Below are positions 38,586-61,368 of a stretch of DNA of 64,000 nt, one piece after another. The first letter of the stretch is position 1; each line of letters opens with the position of its first letter. The DNA comes from a bacterium (lineage in GTDB: Bacteria > Electryoneota > Electryoneia > Electryoneales > Electryoneaceae): contig OY769902.1 in assembly GCA_963669175.1 (NCBI GenBank), positions 1,856,001-1,920,000 of the forward strand, written 5' to 3'. The notes under the pieces are model-generated. The model was not told the origin of the DNA and searched no databases. It saw nothing but the letters and a program-made list of their open reading frames with translations. Position numbers and translations under genes: made by a program.

Positions 38586-38780
38586 CCGGGGATGACATAT
38601 ATACCGGGGATGACATATATACCGGGGATGACATATATACCGGGGATGACATATATACCGGGGATGACATATATACCGGGGATGACATATATACCGGGGA
38701 TGACATATATACCGGGGATGACATATATACCGGGGATGACATATATACCGAGGATGACATATATGCCGAGGATGACATAA
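38586..38780. repeat. 18-bp tandem array (11 units) attached to a REP-like hairpin
   Basis: CCGGGGATGACATATATA x9 plus 2 variants, contiguous with hairpin GATCCCCGTTCAAGCCGGGGATGAC. Confidence 0.95.
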
Positions 38781-55290: not shown

Positions 55291-55504
55291 AATTGATTCA
55301 CAAGATGTACAGGATGATGAAGGATGAACAGGATAGAAAACAATTGATGTGACAACTATCAACCTTTTAACTTTCGAACCTACTCTGGGTGGACCGATAC
55401 ACAAGTGATGAATCTTCGCATCAGATGCAGTAGGAATACTCTCATGATTGTTGAAATTATTGCTTCTCTTGGAGTGCGTCGGGATTGATCACAAGCTGGA
55501 TATA

Positions 55505-55826
55505 TTACTGTTCTCGATTTTATTCCGACATAATAAAGATTGCCGGGAAAAGGGGACGGGATCCTTTTCCTCGCGCGCATATGAAACACTCTCGCCGAAC
55601 TTGTGGAAAAGGAAACTGTACCCTTTTCCGTGTACGTCCTGCCTGCTCTCAAGAAAAAGGGTACAGCCACCTTTCCCGGTCCTTGCTCACAGCGGGAAGG
55701 CTTTGCCCCAGGGAAAGGAAACTGTCCCCTTTTTCCATATCCTTATCCTTTATTCCAACCATATGGTTGACCTTTCACTGATCTGGCACATGACCACGTG
55801 ACGGAATAATAATGGGAATCGCTATA
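55505..55826. repeat. Dispersed REP cassette family C, copy 2 (four motifs, no IS110)
   Basis: Matches 8464-8792 and carries two extra internal motifs (AAAAGGAAACTGTACCCTTTT, AAAAGGGTACAGCCACCTTT). Confidence 0.85.
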
Positions 55827-59996: not shown

Positions 59997-60092
59997 ATGA
60001 AAATGCAGAAGAAAACCCTTTACACGCTGACCATGCTCCTGATTCTAAGCAGTGTGTGTCTCAGTCAGACTGTTATCATTGATAAAAACTAG
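59997..60092 (+). pseudogene. 5' stub of a secreted-protein gene truncated at the REP array
   Basis: AAGGAG RBS, MKMQKKTLYTLTMLLILSSVCLSQTVIID (signal peptide), then the first AAAAACTAG unit supplies the stop. Confidence 0.55.
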
Positions 60093-60594
60093 GGACTAAA
60101 AACTAGGGACAGACGGTTAAAAAACTAGCAAAAAACTAGAAAACTAGGGACGAAAACTAGAAAACTAGGGACAGACGGTAGAAAACTAGGGACAGACGGT
60201 AGTTTTTATTTCTTTCGGGGCCTTCCTTCAGGTAAGGGATGGAGCCTTCGTCCAGTTCTATGTTCCAGATCAGATACCCACTCTTTGCTTCCCAAGGGAC
60301 GTCCGGTTCAAAAAAACTAGGGACAGACGGTAGTTTTTATTTCTTTCGGGGCCTTCCTTCAGGCAAGGGATGGAGCCTTCGTCCAGTTCTATGTTCCAGA
60401 TCAGATACCCACTCTTTGCTTCCCAAGGGACGTCCGGTTCTGGTATTGCGATTAAAAACTAGGGACAGACGGTAGTTTTTATTTCTTTCGGGGCCTTCCT
60501 TCAGGCAAGGGATGGAGCCTTCGTCCAGTTCTATGTTCCAGATCAGATACCCACTCTTTGCTTCCCAAGGGACGTCCGGTTCTGGTATTGCGAT
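60084..60594. repeat. Fixed-end, variable-length tandem array of the RAYT-flanking REP and RAYT 3' end
   Basis: Ten units starting (A)AAAACTAG at 60084, 60098, 60119, 60130, 60140, 60153, 60161, 60182, 60310 and 60454. Confidence 0.92.
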
Positions 60595-61144
60595 GTAATA
60601 GCTCCCAGAATTCAGGATCATGCGGTTGATCCAGGATTGCTTTCCAGTCGTCGAGGTCTGTCTTTTCCGGCCAACGTGAGTTGACAAGTAGCGGATCGCT
60701 TGCGTGGCCAAGATGATGGTGCACACTTGACCAGGGCCAATCTGTAGCATCTTTGATCAGCCCGGCTCGTACCGGATTAAGTTCAACATATTGCGCGGCA
60801 CGATACAGATGTTGATCATCCAGGGCACAGGAGTAAAAACGTCCCTGCCAGAGGTGGCCGACCAATCCAGTCCTTCGGTGCATGTGCTGAGCATACACCA
60901 TGTGAGTAGTGGCCAGGGTACGTGCCATAGACGTTGTTGTCAGAGGATATACGATCAGGTTAACATGATTGTTCATCAGGCAGTATGCCCACACTTCCAG
61001 TTTATACTTCCTGCCATACTTTTCCAGCAATTCCAGATACTTCTGAAAGTCCTCCTCATCAGCGAAAACATCTTGACGGTAGTTGCCACGTTGTGTCACA
61101 TGATAAGGCAATTCCGGCTCCTGGAAACGCGCTTCTCGGGGCAT
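60479..61144 (-). CDS. REP-associated tyrosine transposase (RAYT, Y1/HUH family)
   Basis: MPREAR...YHVTQRGN, AYCLMNNHVNL, GHLWQGRFYS, YVELNPVRAGL, WPWSS, GRPLGS, GRPRKK. Flanked by inverted REPs at 60454-60480 and 61343-61368. Confidence 0.92.
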   Translation of the reverse strand: MPREARFQEPELPYHVTQRGNYRQDVFADEEDFQKYLELLEKYGRKYKLEVWAYCLMNNHVNLIVYPLTTTSMARTLATTHMVYAQHMHRRTGLVGHLWQGRFYSCALDDQHLYRAAQYVELNPVRAGLIKDATDWPWSSVHHHLGHASDPLLVNSRWPEKTDLDDWKAILDQPHDPEFWELLHRNTRTGRPLGSKEWVSDLEHRTGRRLHPLPEGRPRKK

Positions 61145-61342
61145 GATTTCTCCTGTAAATATGCGAAAACAGGGACACTGACCCTTCGTGGTCTGTCCCA
61201 TTTTCGCGGTTAGATGATGCCAATGATACCGATCTAGACAGTCTCTTTGACAACCACACAATAGTACAATTCTACACGAGACACCTGTAATAAGCCATAC
61301 TGAAGATAACTTAACTCAAGAAATATTTCAACAAATATTCTC

Positions 61343-61368
61343 AAAAACTACCGTCTGTCCCTAGTTAA
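61343..61368. repeat. REP upstream of the RAYT, inverted relative to the downstream copy
   Basis: AAAAACTACCGTCTGTCCCTAGTT is the reverse complement of AACTAGGGACAGACGGTAGTTTTT. Confidence 0.85.

Follow-up and report, generated by a model that had tools for sequence, protein, structure and literature searches.

Nested outer-edge duplications at the terminal repeats of TIRYT-type elements in a bacterial genome and its relatives

The window analysed here is a stretch of 64,000 nucleotides from one bacterial genome (G000), and near one end of it lies a TIRtron: a TIRYT-type transposase gene together with its 24-bp inverted repeats. The downstream end of this element carries an array of ten repeat heads. 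This array and others like it are stacks of local tandem duplications with a confined outer start and a variable inner end, and such outer-edge ladders are a trait of the TIRYT repeat family. We think it likely that nicking, extension and rejoining by the TIRYT explain the arrays; the nick, the role of the enzyme and the stall of the polymerase are deduced from the sequences that were left behind.

The element and its array

The transposase of the window (Table 1) has an intact YxxxNP motif (Y119-VELNP) and its best NCBIfam match is NF047646 (REP_Tyr_transpos), at 69 bits, which is under the cut-off of 80. Its structure model has a mean pLDDT of 91 and shows a conserved helical C-terminal extension (helices 161-206). 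None of the 48 aligned members matches Pfam HTH or DnaA_C. His62, the second histidine of the HUH motif, is present in at least 90% of the 48 aligned relatives; the window copy reads H-V-N, and a related strain and a congener read H-V-H. The window transposase is a damaged member of the TIRYTs, not a different family, and because the second histidine is lost, this copy is unlikely to be active and is probably dead now.

TIRYTs and TIRtrons were described as RAYT-like genes between inverted repeats with a GGGGWSAS-like motif, which is present in most, not all, of the examples (Di Nocera, De Gregorio & Rocco 2013, PMC3733652). The window repeat, AGGGACAG, agrees with this motif at 7 of 8 positions, and the exact GGGGACAG is found in repeat copies at 2745174, 2745198 and 4907523 of G000. 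The class is probably the same as TnpA-Y1 subclass 2.1, with which Quentin et al. 2018 tentatively equate it (PMC6006769). In that study the subclass has no REPs nearby and occurs in 14.9% of the strains surveyed, and its group 2.1.2 has an HTH-like additional conserved C-terminal domain. The element resembles published TIRtrons in its RAYT-like Y1/HUH gene, in the terminal inverted repeats on either side with their GGG(G)ACAG motif (PMC3733652) and in the dispersal of the repeats as singles, dimers and clusters (PMC3733652, PMC6006769). The element differs from them in a core with three G, in the lack of a Pfam HTH in the 48 proteins and in the lost second histidine.

Table 1. Features of the element and its array in the window
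Feature	Position	Strand	Remarks
31-codon ORF	59997..60092	+	Ribosome-binding-like site; signal-peptide-like start MKMQKKTLYTLTMLLILSSVCLSQTVIIDKN; stop is the TAG of unit 1
Units 1-7	60084..60181	+	Incomplete copies, limited to the outer portion of the inverted repeat; 14, 21, 11, 10, 13, 8 and 21 bp
Unit 8	60182..60309	+	128 bp; entire repeat and gene 3' end
Unit 9	60310..60453	+	144 bp, counting its 7-A head and the T before unit 10; entire repeat and gene 3' end; identical to unit 10
Innermost intact downstream terminal inverted repeat	60454..60480	+	Core GGGACAGACGGTAG at 60462-60475; overlaps stop codon
TIRYT-type Y1/HUH tyrosine transposase gene	60479..61144	-	221 aa; Pfam Y1_Tnp, E 6e-13
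HUH codons	60959..60967	-	His-Val-Asn (H60-V-N62); His-Val-His in the X3 strain
Upstream terminal inverted repeat	61343..61366	-	Single copy, without stutter

An earlier note on this DNA took the repeat for a REP beside a RAYT. The stretch 60457-60480 is the perfect inverse of 61343-61366 across the gene (24 bp, 100% complementary), and the supposed REP is therefore a terminal inverted repeat of the TIRYT type. Folded as single-stranded DNA, the downstream copy forms a weak stem of A/T pairs only (-4.2 kcal/mol, z -1.6/-2.3) and the upstream copy forms almost no hairpin (z about 0), so the repeat is not a typical REP.

The array consists of ten A(4-7)CTAG heads, at 60084, 60098, 60119, 60130, 60140, 60153, 60161, 60182, 60310 and 60454. 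Their number and the unit lengths are as the earlier note had given them, with seven units of 8-21 bp, two of 128 and 144 bp and a tenth which continues into the minus-strand gene. Its claim that every unit begins at an identical edge does not hold: the heads are ragged, with A-runs of 4 to 7 and with 0-6 flank letters before the units. Unit 8 differs from unit 10 at one position, 60233. When 2 mismatches are allowed, the 13-mer AAACTAGGGACAG occurs 10 times in the window, where 0.77 occurrences are expected, and 8 of the 10 belong to this element. The window array does not unwind fully into successive duplications, because the C at 60129 has no match in any outer context; the search halted at 3 heads.

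The array is real. It was checked in Logan contigs of sequencing runs, not raw reads; the stretch or part of it is present in four runs, none recorded as RNA. Two of these, X1 and X2, each have one contig over 59300-60211 with 0 differences, which takes in units 1-7 and the first part of unit 8. The junction of units 9 and 10 is bridged by a 62-nt contig (60423-60484) at single-copy depth (48 in X1, 32 in X2). The shared 140-nt body has depths of 117 and 80, about 2.5 times those of the gene (46 and 33). At the level of contigs the array is borne out for units 1-7, the first part of unit 8 and the 9/10 junction; a contig for the 8/9 junction is not among the matches listed for X1 and X2. Run X3 comes from another study and contains a strain about 94-97% alike to the window. 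There a contig over 60457-60717 has a depth of 22 against 9, and a 61-nt contig links 60717, through five other letters, back to the repeat head. The X3 strain has a different, longer duplication, reaching 60717, at the same element end, and has a G at 60961, so that it encodes His-Val-His in place of the His-Val-Asn of the window.

That the array is a sequencing or assembly artefact at a palindrome is extremely improbable. The genome is a one-contig assembly, and X1 and X2, available as contigs rather than raw reads, come from a single sample from which that assembly may have been made. Against an artefact stand the exact contigs and the 2.5-fold depth, the differing duplication in the strain from another study, a substitution private to unit 8, and like scars in a congener assembled in 390 contigs and in many metagenomic records.

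Ladders across the repeat family and what their junctions record

The core GGGACAGACGGTAG has 48 sites in G000 at no more than one mismatch (41 exact), which fall into 24 clusters, a few of them probably due to chance: solo ends, four short gene-less doublets and the window cassette. Each end was scored from its innermost intact repeat copy for a perfect tandem duplication of at least 6 nt starting just outside. Such a duplication is present on the outer edge at 10 of 30 ends in G000 and on the inner side at 0 of 30, by two controls. At several further ends the ladders are imperfect or compound; they reach eight heads, and their units can be as long as 393 bp.

The same genome holds other repeats which serve as a comparison. 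Scars are found at 18 of 46 GGGACAGACGG sites, against 0/48, 0/35, 1/56, 0/37 and 0/32 in five other GGGAC families and 32 of 3000 at random anchors. One further GGGAC family scores 14/91, all of them a single inherited 6-mer lying further out. Two of the negative families flank the second TIRYT of G000 (3618164-3618820, intact HIH), whose own repeats are without stutter. This second TIRYT was considered as the writer of the ladders in trans and is disfavoured, since its own repeats carry no scars. As a side observation, the Y1_Tnp genes of G000 number ten; they are of several types, and most of them have a repeat family of their own.

The exact 19-nt repeat pattern is found in 4 of 61 related genomes, and 20 times in the congener G001, whose TIRYT is 72% identical to that of the window and has an intact HVH. 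The congener set has an outer-edge duplication at 9 of 23 ends and none in the inner or mirror controls (0/23), a count which excludes loci L053, L060 and L063 from other genomes. For distant relatives, the best 80 of 134 metagenomic matches were scanned and gave 56 non-redundant TIRYT loci with 90 usable ends, of which 22 have an outer-edge duplication (9 upstream and 13 downstream of the gene) and 68 do not; the denominator keeps three anchors that were not a true repeat. In the controls, ten anchors shifted inward or mirrored scored 0-1 of 90 each, anchors shifted outward 0-4 of 78-86, and random anchors matched for AT content 22 of 1295. The survey of homologues proposed in the earlier note finds outer-edge tandem duplications in the congener set and the metagenomes, with a start that is not fixed.

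The junctions of the duplications were read in positions counted from the first G of GGGAC. The left-most duplication starts lie at -5 to -14 in the metagenomes, -8 to -11 in G000 and -8 to -12 in the congener set. The conserved repeat begins at about -6 and most starts lie further out, so that the units include flank letters specific to the locus. Most starts are 8-12 nt outside the GGGAC core, and they do not share one fixed base. Nor is there a dinucleotide rule among the 19 unambiguous starts: none falls between C and T, and 2 fall between C and A.

Letters at the junctions show where the copied DNA came from. Among 68 units from hand-picked arrays, 17 with only A as junction letters and 3 long ones were set aside, leaving 48 informative units. 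In 39 of these 48, the junction letters equal the context of a more outer head in the same array; with junctions swapped between loci the mean was 12.2 and the maximum 20 in 5000 draws. The other 9 have no direct match, and most can be read as added micro-duplications of 1-4 nt, which are easily posited. Two G000 arrays with 8 heads each (1142502 and 2591642) unwind to one end through nine perfect duplications each, starting at -6 to -12, with 0/20 in randomised controls for each; this control is faulty for arrays of 2-3 heads and valid only for large ones. The inner ends vary more. Unit ends fall on core G0 or G+1 in 28 of the 68, and some units run 128-393 nt inward. Microhomology is at or below simulation in three sets (0.86 vs 1.14, 0.30 vs 0.74 and 0.78 vs 0.69), and the lack of an excess agrees with the view in the earlier note that simple slippage is unlikely.

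A probable nick-and-rejoin mechanism and its rivals

In the favoured mechanism, the cognate TIRYT would bind the GGGACAG core and nick the strand that runs from outside to inside about one helical turn outside the core, at a place set by distance, not by a fixed dinucleotide. The enzyme would remain joined through its tyrosine to the 5' end of the element, leaving a 3'-OH on the flank. Host polymerase would then elongate this 3'-OH by strand displacement, usually stalling at the bound core and sometimes running far beyond it. The new 3'-OH, or one from a second cut in the new strand, would attack the phosphotyrosine and seal the duplication. The intact repeat would outlive each round, and the recurring cycle would build a ladder. 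Joining of the protein-linked 5' end to a 3'-OH elsewhere could give solo ends, copies in trans, target deletions and target duplications.

A cut by an HUH enzyme leaves a 5'-phosphotyrosine and a free 3'-OH, and the latter can either serve as a primer for synthesis or undo the phosphotyrosine bond (Corneloup et al. 2021, PMC8266576). The polarity of the duplications is as expected from a nick with the 3'-OH on the flank and the 5'-phosphotyrosine on the element. The repeated nick-primed copying suggested in the earlier note is supported insofar as outer-edge duplications were made in place with this polarity; its single defined site is not, with starts spread over about -5 to -14 and no shared dinucleotide. 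To call the array a direct footprint was too strong for a process deduced from sequence, in a strain whose enzyme copy has no second HUH histidine. As the window enzyme is probably dead, the simplest reading of its ladders is that they are fossils, probably written before the loss of His62. The X3 strain and the congener have the same scars next to an intact HVH. Besides the lost histidine, several observations count against the mechanism: the window array unwinds only in part, 9 of the 48 informative junctions lack a direct match, the second TIRYT of G000 has an intact HIH and yet repeats free of stutter, 68 of 90 metagenomic ends carry no duplication, and the starts do not follow the C/T or C/A sites at which characterised TnpA-REP enzymes cut ssDNA.

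The roles of the enzyme and the polymerase could be arranged otherwise. A TIRYT, perhaps as a dimer, might cut the outer strand near -9 and the other strand variably further inward, and fill-in and rejoining would produce a duplication that resembles a target-site duplication with nothing inserted. The commonest unit, from about -9 to G0 or G+1, fits this with its near-constant 9-12 nt, as does one doublet which lies between copies of a 14-bp direct repeat. The staggered cut is nevertheless unlikely, as units of 19-41, 128, 142 and 393 nt require the second cut at an arbitrary distance, and direct repeats longer than 6 nt surround 0 of 36 metagenomic cassettes, like the control. Slippage at a roadblock would need no nick: the replicative polymerase would stall at a protein held tightly on the core, or at the weak hairpin, slip back and copy the stretch again. 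The preferred unit end at the start of the core (28/68) and the easy melting of the A/T-rich heads suit this reading, and the arms around the 11-nt loop pair at 0.61 against 0.52 when permuted (maximum 0.57 in 500 permutations, 83 ends), a value inflated by related ends. However, a stall predicts a fixed end and a free start, and the observed start is confined while the end reaches as far as 393 nt. With microhomology excess absent, scars absent from other GGGAC families of the same genome, and stuttered ends on both replication strands without bias (9 leading and 8 lagging of 17, by G000 skew and hand count), we regard roadblock slippage as quite improbable.

A polymerase might also jump between templates, with a reverse transcriptase or a repair polymerase at a break restarting repeatedly at the A-run, on the end of either an RNA or a DNA. 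The array resembles the products of template jumping in two respects, the variable length of its A-runs (4-7) and an apparently untemplated C at 60129. Most junction letters are instead locally templated, often from G/C-rich flank (CACCT, AGCGG, CGCCG), the scars are specific to TIRYT repeats, and they occur at both gene ends (9 upstream, 13 downstream) and so do not follow the 3' end of an mRNA. Template jumping is very unlikely on these grounds.

Nicking, extension and rejoining by a TIRYT would be close to what has been proposed for the E. coli REPtron (TnpA-REP with REP/BIME). The proteins are related (PDB 4er8, E. coli TnpA-REP, E 4e-7), and the chemistry favoured here for the arrays has already been put forward for E. 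coli BIMEs as a nick-prime-rejoin scheme (Ton-Hoang et al., PMC3333891, Fig. 7B). In that model a nick, extension by host polymerase and attack on the Tyr-5'P bond add one unit, which equals the mechanism inferred here, and capture of flanking DNA is permitted as well (PMC3333891). The exact mechanism of REP/BIME multiplication is not known according to the same authors (PMC3333891). E. coli BIMEs have regular copies, a GTAG guide beside a stable hairpin, and cuts between C and T or C and A (PMC3333891, PMC8266576), whereas the window family has nested partial units, a weak hairpin and starts apparently set by distance without a dinucleotide rule. The element does not belong to the classical REPtrons (groups 2/3, subclasses 2.2/2.5): the A/T-only stem reaches -4.2 kcal/mol or weaker, GTAG lies at the inner end of the loop and not 5' of a stem, and the starts, as inferred from genomic junctions, lack the C/T and C/A cleavage preference.

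The IS91 family (PMC13181058) shares HUH chemistry, a defined start, read-through into adjacent DNA and the lack of a regular target-site duplication. In IS91 the ori and ter ends are unlike each other, terminal inverted repeats are absent and the target is always one tetranucleotide (PMC13181058), in contrast to the two like inverted ends, the small IS200-like protein and the short copies written in place of the window element. The element has terminal inverted repeats and neither an ori/ter pair nor a fixed target, and is not an IS91 family member. The analogy in the earlier note to a fixed ori and a variable ter is a loose one.

A literature search found no TIRYT biochemistry and no description of nested outer-end duplications at TIRYT repeats; the term TIRYT itself appeared in only two relevant papers. 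The passages covered of the TIRYT/TIRtron papers give neither such duplications nor a mechanism or biochemistry, and their figures or supplements may show such flanks (PMC3733652, PMC6006769); the parts covered of Bertels et al. 2017 (PMC5581495) do not describe them. This genome contributes long ladders which keep the order of events, a negative control within the genome, filled sites that can be compared with empty ones, and a sister strain in which the enzyme is intact and the duplication is a separate one.

The arrays bear on how RAYT-type enzymes multiply repeats in living cells, as they preserve the sequence of events. They also yield predictions that can be tested (which strand is nicked, a nick position 8-12 nt outside GGGAC, independence of any dinucleotide and a tendency to stop at the core), and the congener offers an intact enzyme with matching substrates. 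A broader reading is put forward tentatively, as a possibility toward which we do not lean: TIRYTs may be a distinct and widespread class of HUH mobilisers, in which core recognition, a nick at a distance and resolution of the 5' end on any near 3'-OH would give, by one reaction, ladders, one-ended copies which take 100-400 bp of adjacent DNA to other sites (here with the coding piece for a C-terminal domain described below), and insertions that delete or duplicate their target. Should TIRYTs have made the one-ended copies, they would also transport fragments of genes and remodel gene ends. If the broader reading is true, TIRYTs are bacterial shufflers of gene ends, and the arrays record in vivo the rolling-circle-like amplification that has long been suggested for REP/BIME arrays.

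Dispersed copies and neighbouring loci

The repeat of the window element is dispersed over G000 as solo ends and short gene-less doublets, and the congener set has near-identical 65-bp repeat doublets at six loci (L049, L050, L052, L054, L055 and L059). Several of these six lie between convergent genes, and a relative of their spacer is found at G000 4907523. Some G000 loci can be compared with a filled or an empty counterpart. At 1142410-1142615 a doublet stands in place of about 60 bp of a repeat that has empty paralogues, and at 4907470-4907600 a doublet lies inside a 14-bp direct repeat of a different GGGACAG repeat. At 1929775 (-) an insertion-sequence ORF, which we take to be IS3-like, is cut off by the repeat, and its 99%-identical paralogues continue.

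Two sets of longer copies were found. A unit of the repeat and about 96 bp at G000 2134428 (2134421-2134560) is 100% identical to the element start at 4741684 (4741575-4741690), and directly after it comes a second repeat whose inner sequence is unrelated; the unit looks like a one-ended copy that may have been made in trans. The repeat with about 350 bp is present in five diverged copies (88-96%) at 167213, 491662, 1367625, 1368010 and 4741684, all on the minus strand and two of them in tandem. These copies include a piece coding for a C-terminal domain (PNPFNP...) which is common to many secreted proteins of G000.

Neither target-site duplication nor adjacent deletion is a general feature of these insertions. 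Target-site duplications longer than 6 nt are absent from the 36 metagenomic cassettes, with a control of up to 8, and the 14-bp direct repeat is found at 1 of 12 hand-picked doublets or cassettes. Adjacent deletion was rejected as a rule, since the congener genes that abut elements differ by no more than a few codons in their end point from the closest homologues in G000; such deletion is confined to single loci of G000. The site beside hisC is occupied by another gene in the congener. Separate joining of each 5' end to a near 3'-OH would explain such mixed outcomes. The ORF that ends in unit 1 of the window array looks like the start of a gene which may have been cut off by the element end, and may be one such truncation; a blastn search of the genome for a DNA paralogue found none.

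Several other repeats lie nearby. Directly outside a large G000 array, at 2590795 and 2591460-2591520, there are chimeric heads in which AAAACTG(G) stutters are joined to GGGCCACCCG, the end of the REP of another RAYT. In the window, a short inverted GGGAC doublet of another family, with about 20 genome copies and no stutter, lies at 61166-61205, between the upstream repeat and the start codon. A further cluster of GGGACAG-type repeats is found at 55380-55800, with the core GGGACAGTTTC and 91 genome sites, and at 38586-38779 there is an 18-bp tandem repeat, CCGGGGATGACATATATA, with 10.8 copies and 98% matches.
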